Source: Opitutales bacterium | GTDB lineage: Bacteria; Verrucomicrobiota; Verrucomicrobiia; Opitutales; PNEW01 | Length of the DNA: 32,000 bases | Direction of reading: 5' to 3' | Assembly (NCBI GenBank): GCA_965219535.1 | Contig: CBDCNV010000002.1 | Location: 630,001 to 662,000, forward strand | In this document: positions 12,717-32,000 of the stretch, in pieces | Layout of the letters: every line of letters begins with the position of its first letter | Position numbering within the stretch: position 1 is the stretch's first letter | Notes under the pieces: generated by a model | The model's input: the letters and a program-made list of their open reading frames with translations, nothing else | Database searches by the model: none | Told to the model about the DNA's origin: nothing | Made by a program: the position numbers and the translations under genes

Positions 12717-12914
12717 TCCGCGGTAGGAACGCAGATGCCACCGGCTCAAGGTGGCGGATTCGCTAGATTCAGGATGCTACATTATAGAAATATAATGGAG
12801 GGCCGCGCATTACCTGTCGGCCATAGCCCACCGGCCGACGGCTGATCACGTCCGCTGATTGTCCATTGATTGCTGTAACCTAAAGCGGCCACGACGACGC
12901 GTGGCCCTCCACCT

Positions 12915-15553: not shown

Positions 15554-16501
15554 TCATGATCTACGGGAAAGCTGGTCCAATTTTGCCAATACCGTCTGAA
15601 TATAATTTCTTAACTCGTCGGCTGAACTAGGGGTGTAATCATAAAACCCTTTACCCGACTTTACTCCCAACTCACCGCGCTCAACTTTTTCTTTAAGCAA
15701 TGAAGACAGCTCGGTTGAAGATTCGATTACAGGTAAAAGGTTGGAAGTCACGGCGGAGAGAACGTCCCATCCACCAAAATCCAGAACCGCAAAAATCCCC
15801 GCTGCTGCCCAACGGCGACCAAGGCTGCTTTTGATAACGGTGTCTACATCCTGTGGGCTCGCAATACCGCGCTCCACGATGGATAGACTTTCGCGTAAAA
15901 GTGCAACTTGCAGGCGGTTGACGATGAAGCCGGGGACCTCCTTCTGCAGAACCACTGGGCTTTTCCCAATTTTTATTAATAAATCATAAATCGCTGTTAC
16001 TGTTTCATCCGCTGTTTCATCATGGCGGACAATTTCGACGAGGGGGATGAGATAAGGGGGGTTGATGTAATGAACAACAAGAACCTTTTCCGGACGATGA
16101 GTTGCGGACGCGAGTTTACTCGGAAGCAGGGTAGAGGTGTTGCTGCCAAGGATTGTATGCTCCGGGCATAATTTATCCAGGTCCTGAAATATCTTTTGTT
16201 TCAATTCCAGATCTTCGGTAACTGCTTCGATAACAAGATCAGCTTCAGAAACGGCGTCCTCGAGGACTGCGCTCACCTGGATGTTATCCAATACCTGAGT
16301 CGCTTGATCTTCTGTTACCATTTCAAGCTGGGTAAGTATAATTAAGTTTGCCTTAATATTTTCGATTGCCTGACAAAGCAGTTCTTCATTCAGATCGTGC
16401 ACACTTACCTGGTACCCCCCTAATGCGAATTCCTGGGCAAGACCATGGCCCATGAGCCCTGCACCGATAATGGTAATTTTTGAAATATCTTCTGCTTTCA
16501 T
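15554..16501 (-). CDS. 3-hydroxyacyl-CoA dehydrogenase family protein (Hbd / L-gulonate-3-dehydrogenase-like)
   Basis: ITIIGAGLMGHGLAQEFALGGYQV (NAD fold), EDLELKQKIF, HYINPPYLIPLVEIV, QKEVPGFIVNRLQ. ATG at 16501 is preferred over the upstream TTG at 16555 used by the track. Confidence 0.8.
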   Translation of the reverse strand: MKAEDISKITIIGAGLMGHGLAQEFALGGYQVSVHDLNEELLCQAIENIKANLIILTQLEMVTEDQATQVLDNIQVSAVLEDAVSEADLVIEAVTEDLELKQKIFQDLDKLCPEHTILGSNTSTLLPSKLASATHRPEKVLVVHYINPPYLIPLVEIVRHDETADETVTAIYDLLIKIGKSPVVLQKEVPGFIVNRLQVALLRESLSIVERGIASPQDVDTVIKSSLGRRWAAAGIFAVLDFGGWDVLSAVTSNLLPVIESSTELSSLLKEKVERGELGVKSGKGFYDYTPSSADELRNYIQTVLAKLDQLSRRS

Positions 16502-16655
16502 AATTCGGCTATTATGGTTCAATTTACTTATAATCGTCCATTCATCCAATCGCAATTGATTGCTATCCTATCTTTATTCCAGGAGCTTGAGAGTTGCAAC
16601 CACGATTTGTTAACGGTTGACTCTATCTTAATAATCGCTTGTTTTTCCGTTAGTC

Positions 16656-17723: not shown

Positions 17724-17749
17724 AACTTGAAATGGATGAGGTATATGAA

Positions 17750-18643
17750 ATGAAAAATATTATGATTACTAGAATTCTGATTTTAGCCGGTATGCTATTT
17801 GTGCTTAGTTCTTGCGCCGTGGCACCGGAGAACCTGGAAGAAGCCATTCACGAGGCATCGGCGAATGGAGACGCGATCAAAATTAAAGAAATTCTCGAAA
17901 AAGCACCCGAGCTGGTAAACCATCTTAAAAAAGACTCAGCAAGAAGAGATCGAACGCTACTCCACGAGGCGGCGACAAGAGAGGTTGCGGAGATACTCGT
18001 GTCTTATGGAGCGGACATTAACACGAAAGATCGTTTCAACTGGATCCCGTTACATACCGCGAAAAATGGTGAAGTGGCCGAGTATCTCATCAGTAAAGGA
18101 GCTAACGTTCACACTGAGGCCGCGCGTCAATTTACCCCGCTGCACACCGTGGATAATGCGGGAGCAGCTGAAGCACTGATAAGGCATCGCGCTGACGTCA
18201 ATCGTCAGGCCAATCAGCAAATAACGCCTTTATACTGGCAGATACAGAACGGTCATGCCGAAGTTGTTCGTGTTCTCCTGGAGAAACGGGCAAACTGGCG
18301 TGAGCGTTTGAATAATGGGAAGACCCTTCTTCATTTTGCCGCAGATCGTAATAGCCCCGAAATCGTAAATATGCTCGTAAAAAAAGGGCTGCGGGTTGAT
18401 TCCGTTGATGATCTGAAAGCGACACCCTTACATTATTCTGTGTATAAGGATCGCACCGAAGTCGCAACCGTACTGCTCAAACATGGCGCCAATCCCAACG
18501 CAAAACTTTCCAGTGAAGCGGCGATTTTTACTTACGGGGCATCGAACCTGCCTTCTGAAAAAACGGTGGGTGGATTTACCCCCTTGGCTCTCGCCGAGTC
18601 GGAAGAAATGAAAGCGCTCTTACGTCAGCACGGGGCTCGTTAA
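17750..18643 (+). CDS. Ankyrin-repeat lipoprotein
   Basis: MKNIMITRILILAGMLFVLSSC contains a lipobox (L-S-S-C). About 6-7 ANK units follow (TLLHEAA..., IPLHTAKNG..., TPLHTVDNA..., TPLYWQIQNGH..., TLLHFAADRN..., TPLHYSVYKD...). GAGG lies 8 nt before ATG 17750; the track start is 17732. Confidence 0.8.
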   Translation: MKNIMITRILILAGMLFVLSSCAVAPENLEEAIHEASANGDAIKIKEILEKAPELVNHLKKDSARRDRTLLHEAATREVAEILVSYGADINTKDRFNWIPLHTAKNGEVAEYLISKGANVHTEAARQFTPLHTVDNAGAAEALIRHRADVNRQANQQITPLYWQIQNGHAEVVRVLLEKRANWRERLNNGKTLLHFAADRNSPEIVNMLVKKGLRVDSVDDLKATPLHYSVYKDRTEVATVLLKHGANPNAKLSSEAAIFTYGASNLPSEKTVGGFTPLALAESEEMKALLRQHGAR

Positions 18644-18657
18644 AGTAAGCCTTTTTA

Positions 18658-19578
18658 TTACTTCGCACGCAATCCTTCCAGGACCTCTTTAGACATTTTA
18701 CAGATCATCGTATAAGCGGGATCGTAAACATTACCCATATCATATTCAACCGTTTGCCCCATTAATGTGTGAGCGGCGCGGGTGCTGAGACCATAATCTT
18801 CCTCTAACCATCGCACCATTTCAGTCGTTGCGTGTTCGACACATTGATCGAGGGGACGGGCATTGCCCACAGTTAAAATATGAGTGTCATTTTCCGCCCG
18901 GGGCCAATGAATGGTTTTTCCTTTTTGGAGATGCACGGTGAATGTCACGTCGAAAGAGATCTCCATGCCGGTTCCTACAATTTCACCATCGCCTTGCGCG
19001 GCATGGCCGTCACCTAAGTGAAAGAGCGCCCCTTCAGCCTCTACCGGAAAAAAAACAGTAACACCCTGGACAAAACCGTTGTAATCCATGTTGCCACCGT
19101 GAGTAGAAGAAGTGGCGGTGGAAATTGCCTGGCCACCTGGCGGGGCCACGCCAAAACATCCGGGCATGGGGAGTAAGGGGACACTTAAATTACTAAGCGG
19201 AGGGTCGACATCCAGGGGGCGTGCGGTATTTTTTTCGAGGTTGATTTCCCACTCTATTTTTATCTTATCATCATCAAATTCAGGATGGTATTCAGGATCG
19301 AGAACATTGGGGGCAATGGCACAGCGTGTCCAGGCGGTCTTCCGATTGGGAGTGATTTTGTCAAAAGTTACGGCCAGTGAATCTCCCTTCTCGGCTCCTT
19401 CGATGTAAAAGGGACCTGTCATTGGATTACCGCGCTTACCCACTTGATTATACTCAGCATCAACCCCCCAGGCATCGATCGTTGTGGTGGAGACCGTATC
19501 TCCATCGGCGATTTTCAGAACCGGCTCGTGAGAACCTATTGTATTATAGTAAACTTCAGGTGTGAATTGATGGTGCAT
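18658..19578 (-). CDS. Acetamidase/formamidase family protein
   Basis: 306 aa. ...VLKIADGDTVSTTTIDA...GNPMTGPFYIEGAEKGDSLAVTFDKI...HLGDGHAAQGDGEI fits the FmdA/AmdA family pattern. Confidence 0.75.
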   Translation of the reverse strand: MHHQFTPEVYYNTIGSHEPVLKIADGDTVSTTTIDAWGVDAEYNQVGKRGNPMTGPFYIEGAEKGDSLAVTFDKITPNRKTAWTRCAIAPNVLDPEYHPEFDDDKIKIEWEINLEKNTARPLDVDPPLSNLSVPLLPMPGCFGVAPPGGQAISTATSSTHGGNMDYNGFVQGVTVFFPVEAEGALFHLGDGHAAQGDGEIVGTGMEISFDVTFTVHLQKGKTIHWPRAENDTHILTVGNARPLDQCVEHATTEMVRWLEEDYGLSTRAAHTLMGQTVEYDMGNVYDPAYTMICKMSKEVLEGLRAK

Positions 19579-19722: not shown

Positions 19723-20859
19723 CTAGGTTTTGTTTTTTTCAATATAATCAAAATTGATTTTCAATCCGAGGCCCGGTTCCTGGGAGACATGGACAAAACC
19801 TTCGCTATCGAGAGGATCGGAGATTTCATGGAGCCAGGGTGGGGGTTTATCATAGTCGATAAAAGGGTGTAACAAACCGCGTTCATAGTAGAGGCCTGCA
19901 ATGCCCATCGCACAGAGGACGTGCAGGTTGCCGGGACCGCCACCATGAACTTCCATTCTCATCCCAAAGGATTCACAGAGATGGGCTGTCTTAATCAACG
20001 GGGTAATACCGCCGAGGTCTCCGACTCCTCCCCGAATGATGTCGCTCGCGCCGCGTTTGATCCACTCAGCCCGGGTGAAATGTTTGCCTTCCGCGGTTTC
20101 CGGACCCACCACGGGGATATCGAGCTGCTCGGTGAGCCACACATAGGAGGAGACACTTTGCTCATCCATCGGTTCTTCAATCCAAAGATAATTTAACTTT
20201 TCCAGTTCTCGTCCGATGAAAAGCGCCTCGTGCCGATCGTAAAAATGATAGGAATCCAACATGAGATCTATATCATCACCCACTCGTTCTCTCACCGCGC
20301 GGCAAGCGGCTACATCCATCTTCGGATCCGGAGCCCATTCGATGGGCGGCATCCAGGTGTGCAGTTTAATCGCTTTATAACCACGGTCCACACTCATTTG
20401 AGCAAAATCGCCGTAGGCTTCGGGGGTATTCAATCCGCCTTCCAGTTCGTCGCCGCACATGCTGCTGGCATAAGCCGGTACCTTATCGCGAAAAGCACCC
20501 AATAATTTATGAACCGGTTGATTGGCACTACACCCCGCTAAATCCCATAGGGCCATGTCTACTACCGCAATCTCACGATCGGAGAGTCCGCTTTTATGAA
20601 TGCGCTGCCATTGATTGAGACGCTGCCAGATTTTCTCACGATAAAGGGGGTCTTCTCCGACAATTGCGGACTTGACGATATGTTCCATAACCCGGGGATC
20701 ACCGCCAAAGCAGTAACCTTCAAGGTCTTCATCGGTAATGATGCGCGTCAGAGTCTGGGTTGCTTCATGCTCCCCTCCCGGATGGCCGTGACCCTCGGAA
20801 TCACTGACATGATTCGAAAGGTAAGTAAATTGATCTACGGTGACATCGATAATTTTCAT
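19723..20859 (-). CDS. Enolase-superfamily enzyme (mandelate racemase/muconate lactonizing family; sugar-acid dehydratase-like)
   Basis: 378 aa. AIKLHTW, DLMLDSYHFY, LWIEEP and DIIRGGVGDLGGIT sit at the spacing expected for the metal-ligand and barrel motifs of the family. Confidence 0.75.
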   Translation of the reverse strand: MKIIDVTVDQFTYLSNHVSDSEGHGHPGGEHEATQTLTRIITDEDLEGYCFGGDPRVMEHIVKSAIVGEDPLYREKIWQRLNQWQRIHKSGLSDREIAVVDMALWDLAGCSANQPVHKLLGAFRDKVPAYASSMCGDELEGGLNTPEAYGDFAQMSVDRGYKAIKLHTWMPPIEWAPDPKMDVAACRAVRERVGDDIDLMLDSYHFYDRHEALFIGRELEKLNYLWIEEPMDEQSVSSYVWLTEQLDIPVVGPETAEGKHFTRAEWIKRGASDIIRGGVGDLGGITPLIKTAHLCESFGMRMEVHGGGPGNLHVLCAMGIAGLYYERGLLHPFIDYDKPPPWLHEISDPLDSEGFVHVSQEPGLGLKINFDYIEKNKT

Positions 20860-20874
20860 AGGATTAAGAAAAAA

Positions 20875-22119
20875 TTAATCGATTGTGGGCGGATCAGCTA
20901 TAACGCGAGTTTTCCGTCCCTTTTGTATCGCTTTAATTTGTTTATTGGCAAGGGCCACTTCCTTGTCATTGATCAGAGCAGAATATTCAATCGTAAAGTC
21001 TCTGCTCTCTCCTCCTTTGAGTTTAGGTATCCTGCCAAACTTCCGCTCAATACGTCGATTATAAGGAAAACTGGTTCCCGGTTCCAGTCCTGTAACATAA
21101 CCGTCTTCGATGGCGGCTGTATTTTTCCATAAATTTACGATCGGGAGCTGGTCCACCGAAAAGACCATCGATAATGCCCGATTGGCTGCCTTGTTTTGGA
21201 TCATGATTTGCGTCATCTTATTCTCATCGGCATAGGGGTGCATGCAGTAGACTTGCTCAATGAATCCTTGGATCGGGGTCTCGTAAACCTTGTATCGGTT
21301 TATAAACTTTGCTGCGTGATCATTGAAAGGAAAGACCTCTTTTACCGCGCCGACAAACTGTGCGCCCTCTTCCAATAAGGGCGGGCCAAAGTTGACATGA
21401 TATAGAATTTCAAACTCCTCGTCGAAGCCCCCACGATTGGTGATTTTATCCTCCATGCGAAGTGAATGCGAACCGGGGATTGTAGAATATTCCGTCCAGA
21501 GCTCAAATTTTGGCCCATAAAACATTCTTTCATGAACAATCCCGCGTATGCGTATGCGGTGCGGCGGCTCCCGATCGACCAACACTCGGACTTCAGAAGC
21601 GGGAATATTTGCGATCTTACCATGCAGCGTTAAATCCATCTCCGCTTCGTCGCCCGCATTATTGATAAATTTGTCTTTACCGGGGTGGCCCATAAATTCG
21701 ATGCCGCAGCGAACCATCCATTCATTAAAGCCATCCAACCAACCAAGGCCGCCCCGCTCCTGCAAATTGACATACTGGGGATGCACGACTTCTTTGACCG
21801 GTGAGTCCCATCCCAGTCGCATGTCCTCCAGATTCGCTTTCAGTATTCCCATCCCCCGCGTGGGAATCACCGTGAAACTTAATTTTCCGTTGTCCACTTC
21901 AATGACATCCACCCCTTCCTGCTTACCGCCGTGCAAGGTGTATTTTCTGATAGACCAGGGAGACCCGCTGTCAAAATCGACATCCTCATGAGACAACTGC
22001 CAGCTCTCTATATGTATTCCGCGTTTGGAACTCGTTAATAGTTGAGTGATTTGCTCATAGCCATATGCCGGAATAATGAACCACGAAAGAAGCAGACATG
22101 TAATTGTTTTATGCATCAT
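20875..22119 (-). CDS. Galactose-mutarotase-like (aldose 1-epimerase superfamily, DUF4432-like) protein with probable signal peptide
   Basis: [22 protein letters not shown] signal-like N-terminus. [31 protein letters not shown]...[15 protein letters not shown] matches my recollection of DUF4432 proteins. Confidence 0.5.
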
Positions 22120-22149: not shown

Positions 22150-22947
22150 TTATAACCCGAGAGTTTTCATCAATTGAATTTTTTTCATACGTTCTGGACC
22201 TGCGGTTTCGAAAAGCCGATCCGAGATCAAACGGCCCGTTTCGGGGGACCATTGTTCCCCTTGGGATTTGTTTAAGCTGATGATACGCTCAATTTCCCAA
22301 TCCATGCGCGGATGTGTTCTCATCATCCATGCCATCTGCCGGCGGTTGGCGCCGCCACCCCAGCAGGCATGCTGGATCCTCGTATTGAAGACGATAAGAT
22401 CTCCCTTCTCTATTGTAATCTCATAACGACCGGGAAACTGGTCCGTGGGGTAGCCCACGATCAATTCATCAATGTGTTTTTTTTCGAAGGTATCGCTTAA
22501 GTGCATCGGCCAGTGATGACTTCCCGGAATAAAGCTTAAACAGCCTTTTCCCGGGTCGATCTCATCAAGGTAAAACGTCTGCTTCATATCGATGGCGGGT
22601 TCGGGCATATTGCCATCGCGATGCCAGTTGGTATTACCGTTATGTATCTGTCCGTCAGAGCTGCCATAGAAGATGCAATCTTCACCGAGCAGATCTTCTG
22701 CAATAGTCGCCAGTTTGGGGTGATCGAGCAGATTGTAAAAGTAAGGGTCGGCCTCAAATAAAGGGACAATAACGCGATGCCCGTCCGGGAATATTCTGTG
22801 ACCGGGAACCGAATCATCATCCTGTGCTTTATCCATTACCGCGTCAAATCTAGTGGAAAAATCATTGATCTCTTCATGCGTGAGCACCCCGGGGACCTTA
22901 AGAAAGCCTAATAAATGAAAATGAGTTTTTTGTTCGTCAGTCAGCAT
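22150..22947 (-). CDS. PhyH-type Fe(II)/2-oxoglutarate dioxygenase (divergent copy, opposite strand)
   Basis: MLTDEQKTHFHLLGFLKV..., NWHRD (HxD), FIPGSHHWP, IQHACWGGGANRR. Start at ATG 22947 chosen by analogy with the MLTEQQ starts of the array; the track start is 23034. Confidence 0.75.
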   Translation of the reverse strand: MLTDEQKTHFHLLGFLKVPGVLTHEEINDFSTRFDAVMDKAQDDDSVPGHRIFPDGHRVIVPLFEADPYFYNLLDHPKLATIAEDLLGEDCIFYGSSDGQIHNGNTNWHRDGNMPEPAIDMKQTFYLDEIDPGKGCLSFIPGSHHWPMHLSDTFEKKHIDELIVGYPTDQFPGRYEITIEKGDLIVFNTRIQHACWGGGANRRQMAWMMRTHPRMDWEIERIISLNKSQGEQWSPETGRLISDRLFETAGPERMKKIQLMKTLGL

Positions 22948-23135
22948 CTTATCAGCTCTTGTCGATTCTCTGGAACCCATATATTGATGTTCTATCCCCT
23001 CCATTTTTAAAAGAAAAATCGACTCCCACCCCAATTGATTTTTTCCTCACTCTACTAAGCTCTTGAATTCAGTTGGATAAAGTGCTGCTTTTGTTAAATA
23101 GAATATAAATCTGAATCAATAAACCTGTATCTGCC

Positions 23136-24041
23136 ATGGAATATTGCCTAATCCCCAACACCGAGATTGAAGTCTCAACCCTCTGTCTCGGAACGATGAC
23201 TTTCGGCGATCCGGTGAAAGAAAAAGAGGCGATCCACATTGTGGACTGGGCTATCGACCACGGATTAAACTTTATCGATACTGCGGATATGTATGAGGGA
23301 TATTCGCGAACCATGGGTTCACCGGGTGGGGTCACCGAAGAAATTCTCGGCGTGGCGTTAAAAGGCAAACGAGATCGTGTCATCGTGACGACGAAGGTGG
23401 GCAACGCGGTTGGCGATGACTCTTATCGGGGAACAGGTCTCAGCCGTAATCACATCATGCACCAGGTCGACGCGAGCCTGAAGCGAATGCAAACGGATTA
23501 TACAGATTTCTACCACCTGCACCGACCGGATCCCGATACACCCTTGGGGGAATCGATAGCCGTGATGGCTGAGCTCATTCAAGCGGGTAAAGTACGGCAT
23601 TGGGGATTTTCAAATTTTGAAGTGGAACAGATCCGTGAAATGCTTCAACTCTGCCAAACTAACAACTGGCCGCGTCCGGTTATCAGTCAACCGAATTACA
23701 GTTGGTTGAATCGAACTGCGGAAGAAGAACATTTACCCTTATGTAAGCAAGAATCCATTGCCGTAACTCCTTTTAAAGTCTTGGAAGGCGGGCTGCTTAC
23801 CGGTAAATATCGGAAAGGGCAGGAAGCTCCCGGTGACAGTCGAAATAGTGAAAACCCCGGGTGGATCGCATTTGATATGGACGATGATTTATTCGCTAAA
23901 CTGGATGCGTTTGAAAACGAAGCGAAGATAAAGTCGCGCAGTCCTGTAAAGCACGCCGTAAACTGGGTGTTGGAACAGGACGGAATCGCCTCAGTTGTGC
24001 TGGGGTTGAAACGGACCGACCAACTCGCTGATTTGCTTTAA
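23136..24041 (+). CDS. Aldo/keto reductase
   Basis: LCLGTMTFG...AIDHGLNFIDTADMYEGY...VIVTTKVG...YHLHRPD...RHWGFSNF are classical AKR motifs. Confidence 0.85.
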   Translation: MEYCLIPNTEIEVSTLCLGTMTFGDPVKEKEAIHIVDWAIDHGLNFIDTADMYEGYSRTMGSPGGVTEEILGVALKGKRDRVIVTTKVGNAVGDDSYRGTGLSRNHIMHQVDASLKRMQTDYTDFYHLHRPDPDTPLGESIAVMAELIQAGKVRHWGFSNFEVEQIREMLQLCQTNNWPRPVISQPNYSWLNRTAEEEHLPLCKQESIAVTPFKVLEGGLLTGKYRKGQEAPGDSRNSENPGWIAFDMDDDLFAKLDAFENEAKIKSRSPVKHAVNWVLEQDGIASVVLGLKRTDQLADLL

Positions 24042-24096
24042 AAAACGCAAACGGTAGCCATTGACTGTTGTCACTTTTTCCTGCATAATATCACGG

Positions 24097-24918
24097 ATGC
24101 TGAAAAAGGGACAGTTGGCTCATTTCGAAACTTTCGGGTTTCTCGTCTTGCGGCAGGCATTTTCACCCGCGGAGATGAAGACGATTATTGATGCAGCCGA
24201 AGAAATATGGGCGGTCGATGATGGAATGTCCGTTGGCAGTGGTGAAAACAACAGTGCTACCTCGGTGAGAGCGATTGTCGAAAGGCATCCAAAGTTAACA
24301 TCGCTTGCGGAAGACGACCGTATTTATGGAACCCTGGAAAAATTGCTGGGTCCGGAATTCATTTGGGCATTTTCGGAAGGGCAGCGAGGGCGCATCAGCA
24401 CCTCCTGGCATAATGACCGCCCGGGTAAGAATCAGAATAAATATACCCGCATCAAGGTTCACCTTTATCTCGAGCCGACAACAAAAGAGACCGGCGCGAT
24501 TCGCGTCATCCCCGGTTCTCATCGTTCACCCTATCACGAATCACTCGAGCCGCTCATGAATCGTCATATGCATAAAAATGATGCAATGAATGATAAAGAG
24601 GGTGGAGTCGGAAATCATCATACCTTACCCTTCGGGGTGGATGGGCCAGATATTCCCTGTTATGCTTTTGAATCCAAACCCGGAGACGTAATATTTTTTC
24701 ATCAGAATATATTCCACGCCGTGTATGGAGGACTGGGTGAAAGGCGCAGGTATATCGCGATGAAATTCGCGGCGAAACCGACGACCGATGAACATATCCG
24801 TTTAATTAAGGAACATACGGAATATGTATTCCATCCCCATGAAGCTTTTCTTAATAGCGATCGACCGCGCATCCGTGGGATGGTCAAAAACCTGGAAGAA
24901 TTGGGAGCTAGAGTTTAA
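24097..24918 (+). CDS. PhyH-type Fe(II)/2OG dioxygenase, array copy 1 (divergent)
   Basis: MLKKGQLAHFETFGFLVLRQAF, SWHND, GAIRVIPGSHRSP, IFHAVYGGLGERRR. The ATG at 24097 is preferred over the TTG at 24061. Confidence 0.8.
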   Translation: MLKKGQLAHFETFGFLVLRQAFSPAEMKTIIDAAEEIWAVDDGMSVGSGENNSATSVRAIVERHPKLTSLAEDDRIYGTLEKLLGPEFIWAFSEGQRGRISTSWHNDRPGKNQNKYTRIKVHLYLEPTTKETGAIRVIPGSHRSPYHESLEPLMNRHMHKNDAMNDKEGGVGNHHTLPFGVDGPDIPCYAFESKPGDVIFFHQNIFHAVYGGLGERRRYIAMKFAAKPTTDEHIRLIKEHTEYVFHPHEAFLNSDRPRIRGMVKNLEELGARV

Positions 24919-25062
24919 GTCTAAATATTACTTATACAGTTGTCGAATCACGCAAATAATTGAGTCAAAATATGCTTTTTTTTTTGAGAAGGTATGCGTA
25001 ATTATTATACTTCGAAAAATAACAGGATTTCATATTAATAGATAAACAATATAAGGTCATAT

Positions 25063-25884
25063 ATGTTAACCGAGCAACAGGTCACTCAATTTCACACCTT
25101 TGGGTTTCTGGTTCTGCGAAATATTATTACGGAAGCAGAGCATAAGAACATCAGTGAGGAAGTTGAAAAAGGTTACGCGGAGAAAGATAAAAGCGAATTC
25201 ATTGGCGGAGAACGTCTTCAGTTGAACTGGACCAACCTTGTCCCTCTCTGCCCCTTTTTAACTTCATTGCTTGAGAACCCAAGATTTTATGGAATTACGC
25301 AACAGCTCCTGGGAGAAGACGCCGTAGGCTTTGACACCACATCTAATATTATGAAAGGAGACCGCACTATCTGGCATCCCGATGCTCCACCTAATCTACA
25401 GGGATTAAAATTTACCTTTTATCTTGACCCTCTCGATGGAGAGTCGGGTGCGGTACGTATCATCCCCGGATCCCATCAGCCTGGATTCAGTGAGGCGATA
25501 GGAGAAATCAATTTAAAGGATAACAATCCCGGTCCTCCTGTAGATCCCGGTCTCGCCATTAACGAGGTGCCCTGTCATATATGTGAAACCGGTCCACGCG
25601 ACGCTGTTATTATGAACTATCTTAACTGGCATGCCAGCTGGCGTGGTTCATCACGCCGAAGGATGGTAACTTTAAAATATTATAAAAACCCGAAGAGTGC
25701 TGATGAAACTGAAGCGCTGCGGATACATTTCAAAAAAGCAATAGAAGACCGGAAAAATAATAAATTAACCATTAATAGAGCCTATTCCGAGTCCTGGCTT
25801 TCAAATCCCGATAACAGCCCGGTTCGCGCACGCTGGATAAGCTGGTTGCAGAAATGGGGATTGATTGATACAGTTGCAGCTTGA
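25063..25884 (+). CDS. PhyH-type Fe(II)/2OG dioxygenase, array copy 2 (sub-type A)
   Basis: MLTEQQVTQFHTFGFLVLRN. WHPD (His 25375..25377, Asp 25381..25383). GAVRIIPGSH. NWHASWRGSSRRR (His 25630..25632). Tail WLSNPDNSPVRARWISWLQKWG. Confidence 0.85.
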   Translation: MLTEQQVTQFHTFGFLVLRNIITEAEHKNISEEVEKGYAEKDKSEFIGGERLQLNWTNLVPLCPFLTSLLENPRFYGITQQLLGEDAVGFDTTSNIMKGDRTIWHPDAPPNLQGLKFTFYLDPLDGESGAVRIIPGSHQPGFSEAIGEINLKDNNPGPPVDPGLAINEVPCHICETGPRDAVIMNYLNWHASWRGSSRRRMVTLKYYKNPKSADETEALRIHFKKAIEDRKNNKLTINRAYSESWLSNPDNSPVRARWISWLQKWGLIDTVAA

Positions 25885-25913
25885 GACGATACTTATAATA
25901 CCTTGAATCAGCT

Positions 25914-26777
25914 ATGCTTACACAAAAACAGATCGATCAATACCATACTTTCGGATGCCTTATTCTAAGAAATGTTCTCCGCGAAAAAGACATTGATAGA
26001 ATAAACGCAGAGTTTGATAATAAACTGGAGACGACCTTTCGCGGGGAAGCGAACGGGGGGAAGCCGATTCATTGCAGCTGGCCTAATTTAAATCCGGATT
26101 CACCTTTTACCAGTACCCTCCTGGAAGATCCACGGATCTATGAGATTCCAGAGGCATTGTTCGAAGATAAAGTTTACGGGGTGTCCTGTACTGCCACCAG
26201 TTTTATAGAAGATACTCCTTGGCATCCCGACTCCGATCTTTTTCAACTGCACGGAATTAAAGTCGTCATCTATCTCGAGCCGCTCAATGGCGATAATGGT
26301 GCCTTGCGGGTCATTCCCGGTTCACATTTGAACCCCTATCATGACGAAATGCATGCGATTGGAATGTTGGCTGATTTTGATAATCGACCTCTGCCGAGCA
26401 GTCCCTACCTTATCGAGAGCGGCCTCACTATCAAAGATGTCCCTGCACTAATCTGCAGTGTAACTCCTGGTGATGTTATAGTCTTTAATTTCCGGATATG
26501 GCATGCCAGTACCGGGGGTAAGTTTGATCGGCGCTTTATCTCAAATATGTTTATTAAGGATACCGTAACACCCGAAGAAGAAAACGCGGTATCCGAATTA
26601 ATACAAACGACAATCAAAAATCGTGTTAAACGCGCCAGGGAAACCTTTCCTCACCCGAATCCCGAGTACCATTCGGAATGGTTGTCCAATCCAGATAAAA
26701 ATCCTAAGCGTCAATGCAATATCGATTGGATGCGGAAGAAGGGATACTTTGAAGACTATGAAACCTCATTGGTTTAA
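25914..26777 (+). CDS. PhyH-type Fe(II)/2OG dioxygenase, array copy 3 (sub-type B)
   Basis: MLTQKQIDQYHTFGCLILRN, PWHPD, GALRVIPGSHLNPYHD, IWHASTGGKFDRR. Tail WLSNPDKNPKRQCNIDWMRKKG. Confidence 0.85.
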   Translation: MLTQKQIDQYHTFGCLILRNVLREKDIDRINAEFDNKLETTFRGEANGGKPIHCSWPNLNPDSPFTSTLLEDPRIYEIPEALFEDKVYGVSCTATSFIEDTPWHPDSDLFQLHGIKVVIYLEPLNGDNGALRVIPGSHLNPYHDEMHAIGMLADFDNRPLPSSPYLIESGLTIKDVPALICSVTPGDVIVFNFRIWHASTGGKFDRRFISNMFIKDTVTPEEENAVSELIQTTIKNRVKRARETFPHPNPEYHSEWLSNPDKNPKRQCNIDWMRKKGYFEDYETSLV

Positions 26778-26796
26778 TCCTATAGCTGAATAATTC

Positions 26797-27675
26797 ATGC
26801 TGACCGAACAACAGATTCTTCAATTTCGCACCTTCGGCTTTATTCTTTTAAAGAACGTTCTCAGTGAGGATGAGATCCAGAGAATAAACACAGAATTTGA
26901 CCTTAAACTAGCGTCCACATCGAGCGGGAAATCGGATGGTGAGAAAACGGAGCGGATGAGCTGGTCCAGTCTGGGGCCGGATGCTCCTTTCACTTCATCT
27001 CTTTTGGAAGATTCACGAATCGTGAGCATCGTGGATTCATTGTACGGTGAAGATTATTACGGTATATCCTGCAATGCCTCGAGCATGGTCGGTGAAACAA
27101 ACTGGCATCCCGATGCTGACAACCTTAATATGCATGGATTAAAAGTGCTTTGCTATTTACAGCCACTCAATGGCAATAATGGAGCCCTGCGTGTCATTCC
27201 CGGTTCACACCTTAATTCATTGCACGATGATATTAAGCAGATTGAAATGCATGAGCCCAAACATGACGGGCTCACGCATATTGCTGCAGTGAATGACTCC
27301 GGCTTCGGTCTGAAAATAGAAGAAGTTCCCACCTGTGCTTGCTCTGTAATTCCGGGAGATCTCGTAGTCTTTGACTTTCGCTTGTGGCATGCCAGCTCAG
27401 GGGGATCCAATAACCGGCGCATGATATCGATGATTTTTATAAAAAATGCTATTACGCTTGAAGAGGAAGAAGCCGTTAATCAATCGGTCCTCAAGTCGCG
27501 CAGGAACCGGGCAATTCGTGCTAAAGCAGCTTTTGGGAAATTGGGTTCGGAATACCACCCGGACTGGATCGCAAATCCCGATAATATCCCGAGACGTCAA
27601 CGCTGGATCGATTGGATGCGGGAGAAAGGTTATTTCGAAGTTTATAATGCGTCATTAATAGAATCTAAAAATTAA
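26797..27675 (+). CDS. PhyH-type Fe(II)/2OG dioxygenase, array copy 4 (sub-type B)
   Basis: MLTEQQILQFRTFGFILLKN, NWHPD, GALRVIPGSHLNSLHD, LWHASSGGSNNRR. Tail WIANPDNIPRRQRWIDWMREKG. Confidence 0.85.
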   Translation: MLTEQQILQFRTFGFILLKNVLSEDEIQRINTEFDLKLASTSSGKSDGEKTERMSWSSLGPDAPFTSSLLEDSRIVSIVDSLYGEDYYGISCNASSMVGETNWHPDADNLNMHGLKVLCYLQPLNGNNGALRVIPGSHLNSLHDDIKQIEMHEPKHDGLTHIAAVNDSGFGLKIEEVPTCACSVIPGDLVVFDFRLWHASSGGSNNRRMISMIFIKNAITLEEEEAVNQSVLKSRRNRAIRAKAAFGKLGSEYHPDWIANPDNIPRRQRWIDWMREKGYFEVYNASLIESKN

Positions 27676-27685
27676 AAATAATACC

Positions 27686-28504
27686 ATGCTGACCGAACAA
27701 CAGATACACCAATTCCATACCTTCGGGTTCATCGTCTTAAAGAATATGTTAAGTGAGGACGAGCTTAAGATCATCAATGAGGAATTTGAAAAGGGCTACG
27801 CCAAGAAAGATAAAAGTGAATTAATCGCCGGCGCACGCGTGCAGTTGAACTGGTCGAACCTCGAACCTCACAGCCCCTTCACTGCTTCGCTGTTAGAGAA
27901 TAAACGGTTTTACGGAATTGCGCAGCAGCTCTTTGGCGATGATGCAGTGGGAACGAATTCACAATCCAACCATTACGCGGGTACACGCAGTCCCTGGCAC
28001 CCGGATGTTGGCCCTAATACTCATGGGTTTAAATTTACCTTTTATCTCTCGCCTGTGGACGCGGAGAGTGGAGCGCTGAGAGTTATTCCCGGATCACACC
28101 GTCCGGAATTCAGCGATATGATCAGAAAAGTCCGATTGAGAGACAATGATCCCGGGCCGCCCGAAGATCCTGGACTCGAGGTAAACGAAGTTCCCTTTTG
28201 TTCCTGCGACTCTCAACCGGGTGACGCGGTCCTATTCAATTATTTAATCTGGCACTTCAGCTGGCACGGTTCCCAAGACCGGCGCATGGTATCACTGCAG
28301 TATTATAAAAATCCAAAAACGCCGGAAGAAATTGAGGCGGCGCGGAATACGGCGAAACATATTCGGGAGCACAGGAAAGATAAATTAACGATTGATAGGG
28401 ATTACCCTGATTTTTGGCTTTCCAATCCCAACAACAGTCCGGTTCGCGCGCGCTTTATAAAGTGGCTTCGTGAATGGGGCTATATTGAATCCATGCCCGC
28501 TTAA
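27686..28504 (+). CDS. PhyH-type Fe(II)/2OG dioxygenase, array copy 5 (sub-type A)
   Basis: MLTEQQIHQFHTFGFIVLKN, PWHPD, GALRVIPGSHRPEFSD, IWHFSWHGSQDRR. Tail WLSNPNNSPVRARFIKWLREWG. Confidence 0.85.
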   Translation: MLTEQQIHQFHTFGFIVLKNMLSEDELKIINEEFEKGYAKKDKSELIAGARVQLNWSNLEPHSPFTASLLENKRFYGIAQQLFGDDAVGTNSQSNHYAGTRSPWHPDVGPNTHGFKFTFYLSPVDAESGALRVIPGSHRPEFSDMIRKVRLRDNDPGPPEDPGLEVNEVPFCSCDSQPGDAVLFNYLIWHFSWHGSQDRRMVSLQYYKNPKTPEEIEAARNTAKHIREHRKDKLTIDRDYPDFWLSNPNNSPVRARFIKWLREWGYIESMPA

Positions 28505-28535
28505 TTTAAATACACACTACAAACGCCATTATACG

Positions 28536-29354
28536 ATGCTGACCGAACAACAGATACACCAATTCCATACCTTTGGGTTTCTCGTCTTAAAGAATATGTT
28601 AACCGAGGATGAACTTGAGATCGTCAATGAGGAATTTGAAAAGGGCCTGGTAAAAAAAGATAAAAGTGAATTAATCGCCGGCGCGCGCGTGCAGCTGAAC
28701 TGGTCGAACCTGGATTCTCACAGTCCATTCACGGCCTCACTGTTGGAAGATAAGCGAATTTACGGGATCGCGCAGCAGCTCTGGGGAGAAGATGTAGTGG
28801 GAAAAAATTCTCAAGCCAATCATTACGCCGGTAACCGCAGTCCCTGGCACCCGGATGTCGGTCCTAATATTCATGGGTGTAAATTCGTTTTTTATCTCTC
28901 ACCGGTAGACGCCGAGTCGGGGGCATTGAGGGTCATTCCCGGTTCCCACCGCCCGGAATTCAGTGACAGGATCAGAAAAGTACGTCTCAAGGATAATGAT
29001 CCTGGACCACCTGAAGACCCGGGACTCGCGGTAAACGAAGTTCCCTTTTGTTCCTGCGACTCTCAACCGGGTGATGCGGTACTATTCAACTATTTGCTCT
29101 GGCATGCCAGCTGGCATGGTTCCGATAACCGGCGCATGGTATCCTTACAGTATTGGAAAAATCCAAAAACACCTGAAGAAAAAGAAGCGATGGCAGCAAT
29201 GGCGAGCGGTTTTGTGAAGAGAAGTCATGAAAAATTAACCGTTGTCCAACCTTACCCGGATTTTTGGCTTTCCAATCCGGATAACAATCCCCTGCGCGCG
29301 CGCTGGATAGAGTGGCTGCGTGAATGGGGCTATATTGAATCCCTAACCGTTTAA
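28536..29354 (+). CDS. PhyH-type Fe(II)/2OG dioxygenase, array copy 6 (sub-type A, near-duplicate of copy 5)
   Basis: The ATG at 28536 gives MLTEQQIHQFHTFGFLVLKN, the same length (272 aa) as copy 5. The track start 28470 overlaps copy 5. PWHPD, GALRVIPGSHRPEFSD, LWHASWHGSDNRR. Confidence 0.85.
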   Translation: MLTEQQIHQFHTFGFLVLKNMLTEDELEIVNEEFEKGLVKKDKSELIAGARVQLNWSNLDSHSPFTASLLEDKRIYGIAQQLWGEDVVGKNSQANHYAGNRSPWHPDVGPNIHGCKFVFYLSPVDAESGALRVIPGSHRPEFSDRIRKVRLKDNDPGPPEDPGLAVNEVPFCSCDSQPGDAVLFNYLLWHASWHGSDNRRMVSLQYWKNPKTPEEKEAMAAMASGFVKRSHEKLTVVQPYPDFWLSNPDNNPLRARWIEWLREWGYIESLTV

Positions 29355-29385
29355 ATTTATACGAAAGATAGAGAGGAGATGGGCG

Positions 29386-30171
29386 ATGCTTACTGAACCG
29401 CAAATCACGTTTTTTAATACCTTCGGGTTCATTATCCTGAGGAAAGTGTTTTCCGAGGAGGAGCTCGCGACTATGAATGATGAGTTCGATGCATCGTTAA
29501 GGAGTATTCAAAAGGAGAGGCCCGATAACGAACCACCGAAATTTTTAAACTGGTCAAACCTTGGTCCGGATAAACCCTTTCTAAGCATGCTGCCGGAAGA
29601 TCCACGCATTTATGAAACGGCGGAACAGCTATTTGGAGAGGACACGGTTGCCGTGTCATCGAACAGCAATCGCAGGGTGGGAGACACGCGCTGGCATACG
29701 GATCAATCTCACCCCCATTCTTATGGAATGAAATTTGCCGCTTATTTGCAACCCCTCGAAGCCAGTAACGGCGCCTTTTGTGTCATTCCGGGATCACATA
29801 AACAACCTTTTAATGATAATCTTAAGCATATAGAATTGGATAGTCCGGAGATCACTTTACCCTCTTATTCCTGTGATTCAATTCCAGGAGATATGGTCCT
29901 TTTCAACTTTGCCCTCTGGCATTCCAGCTGGGGAGGTTCCTCTGATCGACGCATGTGCACCGTTGACTTCTATAAAAATCCTGTAACACCGGAAGAAGTA
30001 GAGGGCACCTATGATCAGGTTAAAGTCGATGAGAAAGTATACGCTAAAATTCGCGCTTCTGGGTCGGGCTTTCATCCGCACTGGTTAGCCAATCCTCAAA
30101 ACAGTCCCCGGCGCCAACGCTGGATCGATTGGCTGCGGAAATACGGGTTTGTCAAATCAGAAGCAGCTTGA
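29386..30171 (+). CDS. PhyH-type Fe(II)/2OG dioxygenase, array copy 7 (divergent)
   Basis: MLTEPQITFFNTFGFIILRK, RWHTD, GAFCVIPGSHKQP, LWHSSWGGSSDRR. Tail WLANPQNSPRRQRWIDWLRKYG. GAGGAG lies upstream of the ATG. Confidence 0.85.
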   Translation: MLTEPQITFFNTFGFIILRKVFSEEELATMNDEFDASLRSIQKERPDNEPPKFLNWSNLGPDKPFLSMLPEDPRIYETAEQLFGEDTVAVSSNSNRRVGDTRWHTDQSHPHSYGMKFAAYLQPLEASNGAFCVIPGSHKQPFNDNLKHIELDSPEITLPSYSCDSIPGDMVLFNFALWHSSWGGSSDRRMCTVDFYKNPVTPEEVEGTYDQVKVDEKVYAKIRASGSGFHPHWLANPQNSPRRQRWIDWLRKYGFVKSEAA

Positions 30172-30206
30172 ATTTATTATAATCTAAAATCGAAAAGATA
30201 AAAACT

Positions 30207-31037
30207 ATGATCACAGAACAACAGGTGTACTTCTTTAAAACTTTTGGATTTCTCGTGCTTAAAAACGTTTTAACACCGGATGAAATAAAAAAAATAAATG
30301 AAGAGTTTGCGGTGGGATTGGCCAAAATGGATGAAACTAAAATGGGTGCCTCCGTGAGGAAGCAGTACAATTGGACTAATCTCGGACCCGATTCACCTTT
30401 CACTGCCTCATTGCTGGAGGATGAACGGTTCTATGGAATAGCTCAGCAAATTTTGGGGGATGACTGTGTGGGTGTCGATTCTCATGCAAATCAATACAAC
30501 GGGAATCGCAGTCCCTGGCATCCTGATATCAGGGAACCGGGGCCGGACCAGTTCAGTGGTTTTAAGTTTACCTTTTACCTTGCACCGGTCGACGGCAATT
30601 CGGGTGCTCTCCGGGTTGTTCCCGGTTCGCACTGCCCCGGGTTCAGTAGAAATGTCGAAAAAGTCTATTTGAAAGATAATAATCCCGGACCGGACGACGA
30701 TCCCGGTCTCGCTGTAAATGAAGTCCCCGCCCACATTTGCGTGTCCAAACCCGGGGACGCGGTGATTTTCGATTACTTTGTCTGGCACTCCAGTTGGGGT
30801 GGCTCAAAAGACCGCCGGATGGTATCACTGCAGTATTACAAAAATCCGAAAACCCCTGAAGAAGAGGAAGGCATGCGCCAGATGGTTGCTTTTCGGAAAA
30901 ATTTTAATAAAGGATTCAAACGTGAAACCAAACTTTATCCCGACTTCTGGCTTTCAAATCCGCATAATAATGCTATGCGTAGTCAATGGATAGAATGGTT
31001 TCAGAAGTGGGGCTTTATCGATGCGGTTAATGCCTGA
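30207..31037 (+). CDS. PhyH-type Fe(II)/2OG dioxygenase, array copy 8 (sub-type A)
   Basis: MITEQQVYFFKTFGFLVLKN, PWHPD, GALRVVPGSHCPGFS, VWHSSWGGSKDRR. Tail WLSNPHNNAMRSQWIEWFQKWG. Confidence 0.85.
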   Translation: MITEQQVYFFKTFGFLVLKNVLTPDEIKKINEEFAVGLAKMDETKMGASVRKQYNWTNLGPDSPFTASLLEDERFYGIAQQILGDDCVGVDSHANQYNGNRSPWHPDIREPGPDQFSGFKFTFYLAPVDGNSGALRVVPGSHCPGFSRNVEKVYLKDNNPGPDDDPGLAVNEVPAHICVSKPGDAVIFDYFVWHSSWGGSKDRRMVSLQYYKNPKTPEEEEGMRQMVAFRKNFNKGFKRETKLYPDFWLSNPHNNAMRSQWIEWFQKWGFIDAVNA

Positions 31038-31096
31038 CAATTAAAGAAAATTATATATTTTATTTAAAAATAATATTCAAAACTACCCCTTAAAAT

Positions 31097-31942
31097 ATGA
31101 TCGCTGAAAATTACAGCCTCACCGAAAAACAAATTCTACATTTTGAAACCTTTGGGTTTTTAGTCCGCAGAAATGTTTTCAGTGCTGAAGAAATGGCGAC
31201 AATAAATGGAGAATTCGATCGCCGCCGGGCTTCCATTTTAGCTGAAATCGATCCTGAAGAGAAAAAGACTTTCACTCAATGGCCTACCCGAAATCCGGAA
31301 AATCCCTTAACTGCCAGCTTGCTCGATGACCCGCGAATTTATGTGCCATCTGAACAACTGGTAGGAGAAGATTCCATTCCCGTCCAATCTCACTGCAACA
31401 GTTACGGGAAAAGTAGTGGATGGCATGTGGATACTTTTGATCGCCATTTATGTGTAGTCAAAAACATCATGTATCTTCAGCCGACAACCGCGGATCGTGG
31501 GGCCTTGCGTGTTATTCCCGGTTCACATAGAAATCCTTTATCGGAAGACCTGCACAGCATGGATTTGTATGGTTTCCATGATGACTCGTCGCCATTTTTA
31601 AAAGCATCCGGCATGAGAGGAGAAGATATACCCTGTTACATATTTGAGTCGGAGCCAGGCGATGTCATTACCTTTAACGAGTTAACCTGGCATGCGGCCT
31701 TTGGCGGTTATAAAGATCGCCGTTCCCTATCCTATAATTTTTTCACCAACCCAAAGACGGACGATGAAATTGAGTCGATGAAAACAATTGTCGAGCATAC
31801 CCCGGCAAACACACAGGGGTTGGGAACCGTGGGACTCGAATACCATCCCACCTGGTTGGATAATGCTGACAACAACCCGCGACGCGCGCGCTGGATAAAT
31901 TGGTTGGAAGAATGGGGCTTTGTGGATGCTTTTAAAAATTAA
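31097..31942 (+). CDS. PhyH-type Fe(II)/2OG dioxygenase, array copy 9 (divergent)
   Basis: MIAENYSLTEKQILHFETFGFLVRRN, GWHVD, GALRVIPGSHRNP, TWHAAFGGYKDRR. Tail WLDNADNNPRRARWINWLEEWG. Confidence 0.85.
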   Translation: MIAENYSLTEKQILHFETFGFLVRRNVFSAEEMATINGEFDRRRASILAEIDPEEKKTFTQWPTRNPENPLTASLLDDPRIYVPSEQLVGEDSIPVQSHCNSYGKSSGWHVDTFDRHLCVVKNIMYLQPTTADRGALRVIPGSHRNPLSEDLHSMDLYGFHDDSSPFLKASGMRGEDIPCYIFESEPGDVITFNELTWHAAFGGYKDRRSLSYNFFTNPKTDDEIESMKTIVEHTPANTQGLGTVGLEYHPTWLDNADNNPRRARWINWLEEWGFVDAFKN

Positions 31943-31970
31943 AATTTAACCGGTTCTAAACTATAATATC

Positions 31971-32000
31971 ATGATACAGGACAACTATAGAATTAGTGAT
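31971..32000 (+). CDS. Probable start of a tenth array copy (runs off the window)
   Basis: An ATG 28 nt after copy 9 reads MIQDNYRISD, resembling MIAENYSLTE of copy 9. Only 10 codons are visible. Confidence 0.35.
   Translation, partial: MIQDNYRISD

Follow-up and report, generated by a model that had tools for sequence, protein, structure and literature searches.

Why would a bacterium keep a long row of related oxygenase genes side by side in one operon-like block? This question is raised by a locus in a 32,000-nt stretch of the genome of a marine Opitutales bacterium (GenBank assembly GCA_965219535.1, contig CBDCNV010000002.1, positions 630,001–662,000; hereafter the window), which carries a tandem array of genes for Fe(II)/2-oxoglutarate (2OG) oxygenases of the PhyH family (PF05721). 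The complete array consists of 22 PhyH genes and one aldo-keto reductase (AKR) gene within ∼20.4 kb and would, in window numbering, run from 22150 to ∼42507. As an array, it is without a described counterpart; neither the enzyme family itself nor the expansion of PhyH genes in bacteria of marine or sponge-associated origin is new.

Extent and organization of the PhyH array

The window ends inside the array. Positions 22150–32000 hold ten complete PF05721 genes (c0–c9, Table 1) and cover the first 40% of the full array. We extended the locus on a contig of the European Nucleotide Archive (ERZ25072670 ctg253917, 116,938 bp; locus L001), which is identical to the window over the overlap. A preliminary description of the window, made from the sequence alone, had proposed ten or eleven copies, a number that the source contig raises to 22. 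The nine plus-strand open reading frames (ORFs) of 261–292 amino acids on which that count was built are all found in the ORF list, the copy on the opposite strand is indeed a PhyH gene, and the ATG near the window end, suspected of opening a tenth plus-strand copy, starts a 289-amino acid PhyH gene on the source contig. In order, the array comprises one PhyH gene on the minus strand, the AKR gene, 19 PhyH genes on the plus strand, and two convergent PhyH genes on the minus strand, so that nine further plus-strand copies and the two convergent copies lie beyond the tenth plus-strand copy. Downstream of the convergent copies follow genes for a BadF/BcrAD-type (NagK-like) ATPase, a methyltransferase, and a glyoxalase, and then the contig end.

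The window copies are 24–81% identical to each other in a pairwise identity matrix and fall into subtypes. Copies c2, c5, c6, and c8 (mutually 54–81% identical) and copies c3 and c4 (52%) form the groups that had been delineated by eye, but c9, previously considered a singleton, is the first of 11 copies of a “MIQxN” subtype whose series runs past the window end. The subtype of c1 is common to both convergent terminal copies (47% identity). The minus-strand copy c0 is the most divergent paralog, with 26–29% identity to the other copies.

Spacers between the plus-strand PhyH genes measure −4 to 59 nt, with the exception of a 144-nt gap after the first copy, and the spacer lengths given for the window in the preliminary description (144, 29, 19, 10, 31, 31, 35, 59, and 28 nt) are correct. 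A scan of the window returned 7 terminator-like sites versus 11.2 expected. Every site on the plus strand lies inside a gene, none is located in any array spacer, and no breaks independent of a Shine–Dalgarno motif were found. Thus, the earlier impression of operon-like packing, with neither hairpin terminators between copies nor an interleaved regulator, transporter, or carrier gene, was accurate. Judged by this spacing, the array is probably co-transcribed as one or two long operons headed by the AKR gene. The 144-nt gap contains promoter-like hexamers at 24933–24960 and 24984–25011, which are consensus matches only. No Rfam element, be it a riboswitch or another RNA clue to a ligand, matched in the whole window.

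In the part of the array beyond the window (L001 11741–19544), spacing is very regular, with copies a14 to a19 exactly 20–21 nt apart. Copies a10 and a11 share a 4-nt overlap (ATGA), the pairs a12/a13 and a13/a14 are 1 nt apart, and a19 starts with GTG. No Shine–Dalgarno-like motif is evident in the AT-rich spacers of this segment.

Family membership and catalytic site

All ten window copies match PF05721 at 30–66 bits, above the gathering cutoff of 22 bits, as had been expected from their motifs. The terminal copies also exceed the cutoff, and the array genes on L001 and two other loci (L005 and L014) are all annotated as PF05721. Copy c6 served as reference for the structure model and for residue numbering. 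His-105, Asp-107, His-190, and Arg-199 are invariant in 98 of 98 sequences from five genomes, indicating that every copy possesses a complete predicted metal- and 2OG-binding site.

The coordinates assigned earlier to the triad of copy c2 are exact (His 25375–25377, Asp 25381–25383, and distal His 25630–25632). The longer motifs said to occur in every copy hold as a consensus but not literally: the GALRVIPGSH strand reads GAFCVIPGSH in c7, GAVRIIPGSH in c2, and GALRVVPGSH in c8, whereas the distal motif reads FHAVYGG..RRR in c1 and WHFSW in c5. Strictly invariant among the motif residues are only the two histidines, the aspartate, and the first arginine. In c7, a cysteine replaces the conserved arginine of GALRVIPGSH; the consensus of its orthologs is arginine, and cysteine occurs in 1 of the 98 sequences.

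In PhyH-type halogenases, the triad carboxylate is replaced by alanine or glycine (HxA/G). Because the aspartate is retained in all 98 sequences, the array proteins appear to be of hydroxylase type and not halogenases related to SyrB2, CytC3, or BtnX, in line with the preliminary description; the halogenase model TIGR01762 reaches only 18.6 bits versus a cutoff of 226.

The AlphaFold2 model of c6 has a predicted local distance difference test score (pLDDT) of 91. In a Foldseek search, it retrieves PhyH-type oxygenases with a probability of 1.00, E values of ∼1e-11, template modeling (TM) scores of ∼0.55–0.6, and 15–21% sequence identity. The fold matches include GriE, FtmOx1, AviO1/EvdO/HygX, TlxIJ, EctD, SnoN, MysH, and proline hydroxylase. 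Ranked by sequence and profile, the entries of the Protein Data Bank (PDB) are led by EctD (72 bits), followed by proline hydroxylase entries, GriE, and SnoK. Human PHYH (PDB code 2A1X) follows at rank 11 with 39 bits, and PHYHD1 (PDB code 2OPW) yields a partial match of 35 bits. The array proteins are probably cytoplasmic.

No characterized enzyme is close among the NCBIfam, PDB sequence/profile, and Foldseek matches, and nothing specific to the array emerged from NCBIfam, the PDB, or the literature, as the failure to match it to a described pathway had suggested. Besides the halogenases, four assignments were considered and rejected. Membership in EctD is contradicted by the model TIGR02408 (ectoine_ThpD), with 19–31 bits versus a cutoff of 336.5, and by the absence of the 17-residue signature; the array proteins read W-H-P-D-V-G-P-N... 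where the EctD signature is F-x-W-H-S-D-F-E-T-W-H-x-E-D-G-M/L-P. The model for PhnY-type phosphonate hydroxylases (NF052437) matches c0 only, at 18.9 bits versus a cutoff of 500, and no gene for an HD-domain protein (PhnZ) occurs in the window or the contig extensions. PHYH in the strict sense is disfavored by its low rank and by the lack of an adjacent 2-hydroxyacyl-CoA lyase or acyl-CoA ligase gene in the window and extensions. Finally, the PHYHD1/FJS demethylases are distant: BLASTP against the enzymes from Poribacteria and Acidisoma gives 20–24% identity with E values between 1e-4 and 1e-6.

Conservation and origin of the array

The preliminary description had suggested searching other genomes for the same array. 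We found it, with the same gene order and between 14 and ≥21 copies, in four further Opitutales genomes: in Verrucomicrobia bacterium Opi.OSU.00C, a single-cell amplified genome (SAG) from the Sargasso Sea, in two Opitutales metagenome-assembled genomes (MAGs), one of them a 4.49-Mb chromosome, and on a further 3.3-Mb contig. In the paper on Opi.OSU.00C, the organism is portrayed as a free-living bacterioplankter that degrades carbohydrates; the array genes go unmentioned (PMC6003095). A profile built from the window paralogs detects 21, 15, 21, 21, and 20 PhyH ORFs per 20-kb locus in the five loci. Plus-strand copies number 12 in L002, 19 in the source array, and at least 20 in L003 and L004, and some copies show lineage-specific gains and losses between relatives.

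Positional orthologs are 85–97% identical, compared with 46–81% identity to the nearest paralog in the same genome. Across 69 ortholog pairs, the ratio of nonsynonymous to synonymous substitution rates (dN/dS, Nei–Gojobori) ranges from 0.04 to 0.30 with a median of 0.107, indicating that every copy is maintained as a distinct, functional gene under purifying selection. This includes the divergent c0, whose orthologs are 86–97% identical (dN/dS 0.04–0.05). In contrast, dS between paralogs is 0.7–2.9 and thus saturated or nearly so. Identity falls along the array from 55% between adjacent copies to 33% at a distance of 16 (Spearman −0.57, permutation p < 1e-4), a decay indicating that the array grew by ancient, stepwise tandem duplication.

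Subtypes differ in their distribution. The c6 subtype is rare, with 65 of 1.84 billion cluster representatives at E ≤ 1e-30. The subtype of c1 and the terminal copies is the most widespread (365 matches at E ≤ 1e-20) and extends to Poribacteria, Chloroflexota, and Candidatus Moanabacter; poribacterial proteins occur among the homologs of array members with 42–48% identity. Two “COSAG” entries of the eukprot data set (P0064 and P0067) share ∼60% identity with the N-terminal half of c6 and could represent bacterial contamination of a eukaryotic data set or gene transfer.

Sequence divergence between the copies

We compared 18 orthogroups, calling a residue fixed when its frequency within an orthogroup was at least 0.9. 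Entropy between orthogroups is highest for residues 213–240 (2.35 bits) and 140–170 (1.86 bits), and is ∼1.8 bits for residues 51–62, 21–50, and 86–103, whereas conservation within orthogroups averages 0.92. The earlier expectation that differences cluster after the PGSH strand and after the RR motif therefore holds for residues 140–170 and 213–240, but variability is equally high at 86–103 and 21–62. A total of 38 positions are fixed within yet highly variable between orthogroups, among them residues 98, 108, and 109 flanking the HxD motif, hairpin residues 87–91, and residues 186, 201, and 205.

These orthogroup-specific residues are found mainly in the loops and hairpins that surround the conserved core, a pattern that would be expected for divergence in specificity and that suggests diversification of the substrate pockets. 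The part of the EctD signature after HxD has been reported to contribute ligand contacts (PMC5924519). The post-HxD segment of the array proteins corresponds to this part, which by analogy lends modest support to the pocket interpretation.

A probable substrate-diversified oxygenase battery

What might 22 maintained and diverged oxygenases do? We consider it somewhat more probable than its contrary that the array encodes a cytoplasmic, co-expressed catabolic battery of substrate-diversified Fe(II)/2OG oxygenases for small polar, probably carbohydrate-derived compounds, with the AKR and sugar-type neighbors processing the products. Each enzyme would consume O2 and 2OG in hydroxylating its own member of this substrate class, and where the hydroxylated carbon bears oxygen, nitrogen, or sulfur, the substituent would be removed. 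The AKR and the neighboring sugar and sugar-acid enzymes would then pass the products into central metabolism. The plus-strand operon(s) would be transcribed divergently from an operon for a PhyH enzyme, an aldose-epimerase-like protein, an acid-sugar-dehydratase-like protein, and an amidase, and the locus would end at the NagK-like kinase.

Copy number differs between close relatives, which argues for a battery rather than an obligate pathway. A substrate-diversified battery was already the simplest hypothesis of the preliminary description; it remains the best reading and gains support from the positional orthologs under purifying selection and from the species-varying copy number. The substrate class is suggested by the conserved flanks, which are of carbohydrate type (aldose-1-epimerase-like, acid-sugar-dehydratase-like, AKR, and NagK-like kinase), by the gene families beside distant homologs (MR_MLE, AKR, GFO/IDH/MocA, FGGY kinase, class II aldolase, GHL10, and SBP5/Opp importers), and by precedents for sugar chemistry within PF05721, namely FJS/PHYHD1, EvdO/AviO/HygX, and SnoK/SnoN. 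Among the partner genes proposed earlier, those for the AKR, the enolase-superfamily enzyme, and the amidase are conserved beside the array. The connection to the 3-hydroxyacyl-CoA dehydrogenase (HADH)-family gene at 15554 finds no support; genes for an AI-2E transporter and an ankyrin-repeat protein intervene, and no synteny was seen for it.

Several points weigh against this reading. The whole case is built on sequence and gene context; co-transcription is deduced from gene spacing, and the sugar assignment is guilt by association. The association with sugar-type partners holds at the family level only, with MR_MLE and AKR partners at distant loci being 25–28% identical to those of the window. 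The array also has no linked gene for a transporter or a regulator. Moreover, the best matches among solved structures (EctD, proline hydroxylase, and GriE) act on amino-acid-like osmolytes or amino acids, and the substrates could therefore be amino-acid derivatives.

A more specific version of the battery, to which we assign a rather low probability, would be the “de-decoration” of marine carbohydrates, each paralog oxidatively stripping a substituent from a different sugar or position. O-Methyl groups would be released as formaldehyde, and carbons bearing N-alkyl or amino groups or sulfate esters would be converted to carbonyls. The AKR would reduce or oxidize the resulting carbonyl or aldose, and the epimerase-, dehydratase-, and kinase-like neighbors would feed central metabolism. 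If true, the array would constitute the 2OG-oxygenase counterpart of the P450 methyl-sugar demethylases and could account for the proliferation of PhyH genes in Poribacteria and in further bacteria of marine or sponge-associated origin.

Alternative explanations

The competitor that survives best, with a minor but appreciable chance, is a battery for nutrient and osmolyte scavenging. Here, the paralogs would hydroxylate or dealkylate zwitterionic nitrogen, phosphorus, and sulfur compounds (ectoine-like osmolytes, betaines, amino-acid derivatives, and phosphonates), releasing nitrogen, phosphorus, or sulfur or catabolizing osmolytes. The top sequence and profile matches in the PDB, EctD (72 bits), the proline hydroxylase entries, and the leucine hydroxylase GriE, agree with such substrates, and PhnY-like PhyH genes have been proposed to serve the use of 2-aminoethylphosphonate in Poribacteria (PMC3909097). 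Furthermore, a Moanabacter locus with homologs also has genes for DAO-family oxidases and creatininase, SBP_bac_5/Opp-type importers recur near homologs, and the divergent operon contains an amidase gene. However, the EctD signature is absent and the ectoine_ThpD model reaches 31 versus 336 bits, the PhnY-type model reaches 19 versus 500 bits with no PhnZ (HD) gene nearby, and the immediate conserved neighbors are of sugar type (aldose-epimerase-like, acid-sugar-dehydratase-like, and NagK-like).

Unlikely in our view is a sequential or multi-site action of the paralogs on a single large natural product, glycan, or lipid. Tight operon packing would suit the co-expression of such a pathway, and many PhyH-type fold neighbors are natural-product tailoring enzymes (FtmOx1, PrhA/AusE, SptF, PtlH, and the orthosomycin oxygenases), but neither the window nor the region beyond the array contains a scaffold gene for a polyketide synthase, nonribosomal peptide synthetase, terpene cyclase, or glycosyltransferase. 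An obligate stepwise pathway should also not tolerate plus-strand copy numbers of 12, 19, and at least 20 in close relatives, and the use of 22 oxygenases on one molecule is, to our knowledge, without precedent.

Similarly improbable is a pool of hetero-oligomers, in which mixed dimers or higher oligomers of the paralogs would set specificity or regulation. All copies retain the full catalytic set and none looks like a non-catalytic partner, and the gain and loss of single copies between species argues against fixed partnerships. This idea has structural parallels in the PhyH-type heterodimer TlxI–TlxJ (PDB code 7vbq), which is among the fold matches, and in the dimeric EctD (PMC5924519); in addition, a conserved C-terminal helix (W-L-x-N-P...R-W-I-x-W-L) outside the Pfam core could be an interface.

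Literal α-oxidation of phytanoyl-CoA (branched lipids), as suggested by the family name and some automated annotations, we regard as highly improbable. In its favor are the 3-hydroxyacyl-CoA dehydrogenase gene (15554–16555) and a proposal, derived from annotations of this kind, that lake Opitutae scavenge phytol (bioRxiv 10.1101/324970). Against it, PHYH (2A1X, 39 bits) ranks under EctD, the proline hydroxylase entries, GriE, and SnoK, genes for a 2-hydroxyacyl-CoA lyase or an acyl-CoA ligase are absent from the vicinity, and unrelated genes separate the dehydrogenase gene from the array. Last, we give practically no credence to an assembly artifact, a concern of the preliminary description, or to a recent dosage amplification of one gene. 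Assemblers are known to fail on tandem arrays, but the 24–81% identity of the copies, their saturated or near-saturated dS, the dN/dS values, an ortholog for each individual copy, and a gene order shared by five independent assemblies, among them the SAG and the chromosome-level MAG, speak against both.

Relation to known systems

Our literature search brought up no publication describing tandemly arrayed PhyH genes in Opitutales. The closest parallel in family, extent of expansion, and diversity within one lineage is offered by the sponge-symbiotic Poribacteria, in which PF05721 was reported to be the most abundant Pfam family, with >1.9% of genes and 305 sequences in 193 clusters, and to be of unexplained function except for a few PhnY-like cases (Kamke et al. 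2014, PMC3909097). However, the poribacterial expansion is one of genome-wide abundance, with 2 PhyH genes in 18 kb at one examined locus, whereas the 22 genes described here are contiguous, operon-like, syntenic, and verrucomicrobial. In SAR202, paralog expansions of catabolic oxygenases and enolase-superfamily enzymes are interpreted as broadening the oxidation of dissolved organic matter (Landry 2017, PMC5395668; Saw 2020, PMC6946804). The shared concept is an ancient single-family expansion in a marine heterotroph, while enzyme families and phylum differ. The text of Saw 2020 (PMC6946804) is without the terms phytanoyl, 2-oxoglutarate, ketoglutarate, and tandem.

EctD (PDB codes 4MHR, 4Q5O, and 3EMR) is the best sequence match among solved structures and shares the HxD...H triad, the V-I-P-G-S-H strand, and the fold with the array proteins, but it is only ∼21% identical, carries the signature that they lack, and has no counterpart in gene context, as there are no ect genes around the array. 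The orthoester synthases EvdO1/EvdO2/AviO1/HygX and SnoK/SnoN, which are among the top fold and profile matches, act on C–H bonds of sugar rings; they differ from the array proteins in being biosynthetic tailoring enzymes of actinomycete clusters (17–21% identity, TM 0.55–0.6). Such tailoring oxygenases occur in one to three copies per cluster, compared with the 22 of the array. FJS, PHYHD1, and PF05721 homologs from Poribacteria, plants, and viruses O-demethylate 2′-O-methyl nucleosides and release formaldehyde (Stonkus et al. 2025, PMC12709175). These enzymes provide a mechanistic precedent for the oxidation of sugar substituents, but at 20–24% identity the array proteins are not members of their group. 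TlxI–TlxJ (PDB code 7VBQ) has in common with the array the PhyH-type fold and a hetero-oligomer of paralogs, but is a single pair from a fungal meroterpenoid pathway with 16–17% identity.

Expansions of PF05721 have been flagged since 2014 as a striking, unexplained trait of sponge symbionts, and the expansion of oxygenase paralogs is a leading hypothesis for the bacterial attack on diverse dissolved organic matter in the sea. In this context, the locus is a clean natural experiment, with 22 old, individually conserved, and intact single-domain oxygenases, sister arrays that differ in copy number, and a small conserved set of sugar-type partner genes accompanying the block. It offers a panel of ∼20 soluble enzymes of 260–290 amino acids for the screening of substrate libraries, and the orthogroup-specific residues listed for it should be those that determine specificity. 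Should decorated sugars or osmolytes prove to be the substrates, the array would represent a new enzymatic route in marine carbon cycling, and it would supply a set of regio-specific catalysts for C–H oxidation.

Flanking genes and distant homologs

Table 1. Features of the PhyH locus within the window (positions in window numbering; residues numbered as in c6)
Feature	Position	Strand	Remarks
FmdA/AmdA-family amidase	18658–19578	−	PF03069, E 1.5e-25; last gene of divergent operon
Enolase-superfamily (MR_MLE) enzyme, acid-sugar-dehydratase type	19723–20859	−	Pfam MR_MLE_C/N
DUF4432, aldose-1-epimerase-like	20875–22119	−	PF14486, E 1.8e-103; PDB 3TY1, E 6.4e-97
PhyH c0	22150–22947	−	265 aa; PF05721 61 bits; first gene of divergent operon
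Divergent intergenic region c0/AKR	22948–23135	.	188 nt; presumed promoter region
Aldo-keto reductase (AKR)	23136–24041	+	PF00248, E 8e-66; first gene of plus-strand unit
PhyH c1	24097–24918	+	273 aa; PF05721 65.7 bits
AT-rich spacer	24919–25062	+	144 nt; sole long gap in plus-strand run; possible internal promoter
PhyH c2	25063–25884	+	273 aa; PF05721 30.1 bits; H105/D107/H190/R199 present
PhyH c3	25914–26777	+	287 aa; PF05721 59.6 bits
PhyH c4	26797–27675	+	292 aa; PF05721 58.1 bits
PhyH c5	27686–28504	+	272 aa; PF05721 58.5 bits; 81% identical to c6
PhyH c6	28536–29354	+	272 aa; PF05721 66.5 bits
PhyH c7	29386–30171	+	261 aa; PF05721 55.2 bits
PhyH c8	30207–31037	+	276 aa; PF05721 53.9 bits
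PhyH c9	31097–31942	+	281 aa; PF05721 48.2 bits
Tenth plus-strand PhyH copy, cut by window end	31971–32000	+	289-aa PhyH gene, L001 10875–11744

The AKR gene is the only non-PhyH gene inside the array and occupies the same position in L001–L005. The divergent operon consists of four genes (PhyH c0, DUF4432, MR_MLE enzyme, and FmdA/AmdA amidase), and this neighborhood is kept in L002 and L005. The best NCBIfam matches of the MR_MLE enzyme are L-talarate/galactarate, arabinonate, and gluconate/galactonate dehydratases, none of which reaches its cutoff, and it matches the Agrobacterium tumefaciens structures 1RVK, 4HCD, 4HCH, 4HCL, and 4MMW with an E value of 1e-143; its gene is kept beside the array in L005 and L002. 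The DUF4432 gene is conserved in L001, L002, and L005, and its structural match 3TY1 was deposited as “hypothetical aldose 1-epimerase.” The N terminus of the DUF4432 protein is hydrophobic and signal-peptide-like, although its operon mates are apparently cytoplasmic. The amidase gene follows 144 nt after the dehydratase-type gene and is the same neighbor in L002; against the NCBIfam formamidase model, the amidase scores 45 bits, far under the 500-bit cutoff. The NagK-like kinase is found at the far end of the array in two genomes.

Distant homologs (30–50% identity) at L006 and L011 are located beside genes for a GHL10 hydrolase-like protein, SBP5/Opp importers, a cytochrome P450, an aminotransferase, and a short-chain dehydrogenase/reductase. 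In the poribacterial locus L008, 2-hydroxyacid dehydrogenase and SBP5 genes adjoin the homologs, and in L013 these are an FGGY kinase, a class II aldolase, and a GFO/IDH/MocA gene. MR_MLE genes lie directly upstream of the homologs in L015–L018, accompanied by AKR, DAO, and AP_endonuc_2 genes. An orthologous module of PhyH, MR_MLE, and AKR across phyla was rejected, since the distant partners are only 25–28% identical to those in the window.

The unrelated 5.3-Mb genome of L006 carries, at 10950–15146, a 368-amino acid P450, two repeats of a 302-amino acid PhyH and a 134-amino acid P450 fragment, and a third 302-amino acid PhyH, whereas its sister locus L011 (10001–13108) has one intact 415-amino acid P450 and one PhyH. 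The arrangement in L006 gives the impression of a recent tandem amplification in the course of which the P450 was truncated. A link to methyl sugars through the L011 P450 was rejected, as this protein resembles CYP107 enzymes (BioI/PksS/Vdh) and its 60 best matches include no carbohydrate-demethylase P450.

Toward the other end of the window, the plus strand encodes a NuoF-like flavoprotein (8236–9909) and a molybdopterin oxidoreductase with a NuoG-type N terminus (9906–12716), which look like a NAD-linked formate-dehydrogenase-type pair. Located ∼10 kb from the array, these genes could be relevant if the oxygenases release formaldehyde or formate. The minus strand encodes a molybdenum subunit of the xanthine-dehydrogenase/aldehyde-oxidase family (5062–7371) and an 805-amino acid ORF (12915–15332) that has no match in Pfam or NCBIfam. 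The ankyrin-repeat protein between the HADH-family gene and the array (17732–18643, plus strand) contains six Ank_2 stretches. Host-associated bacteria typically encode proteins of this kind; a free-living pelagic SAG is the closest named relative, and other relatives are MAGs. A gene of the 23S rRNA intervening-sequence protein family (4513–4980) and a DUF2332 gene (1753–2631), both on the minus strand, are apparently unrelated to the array.

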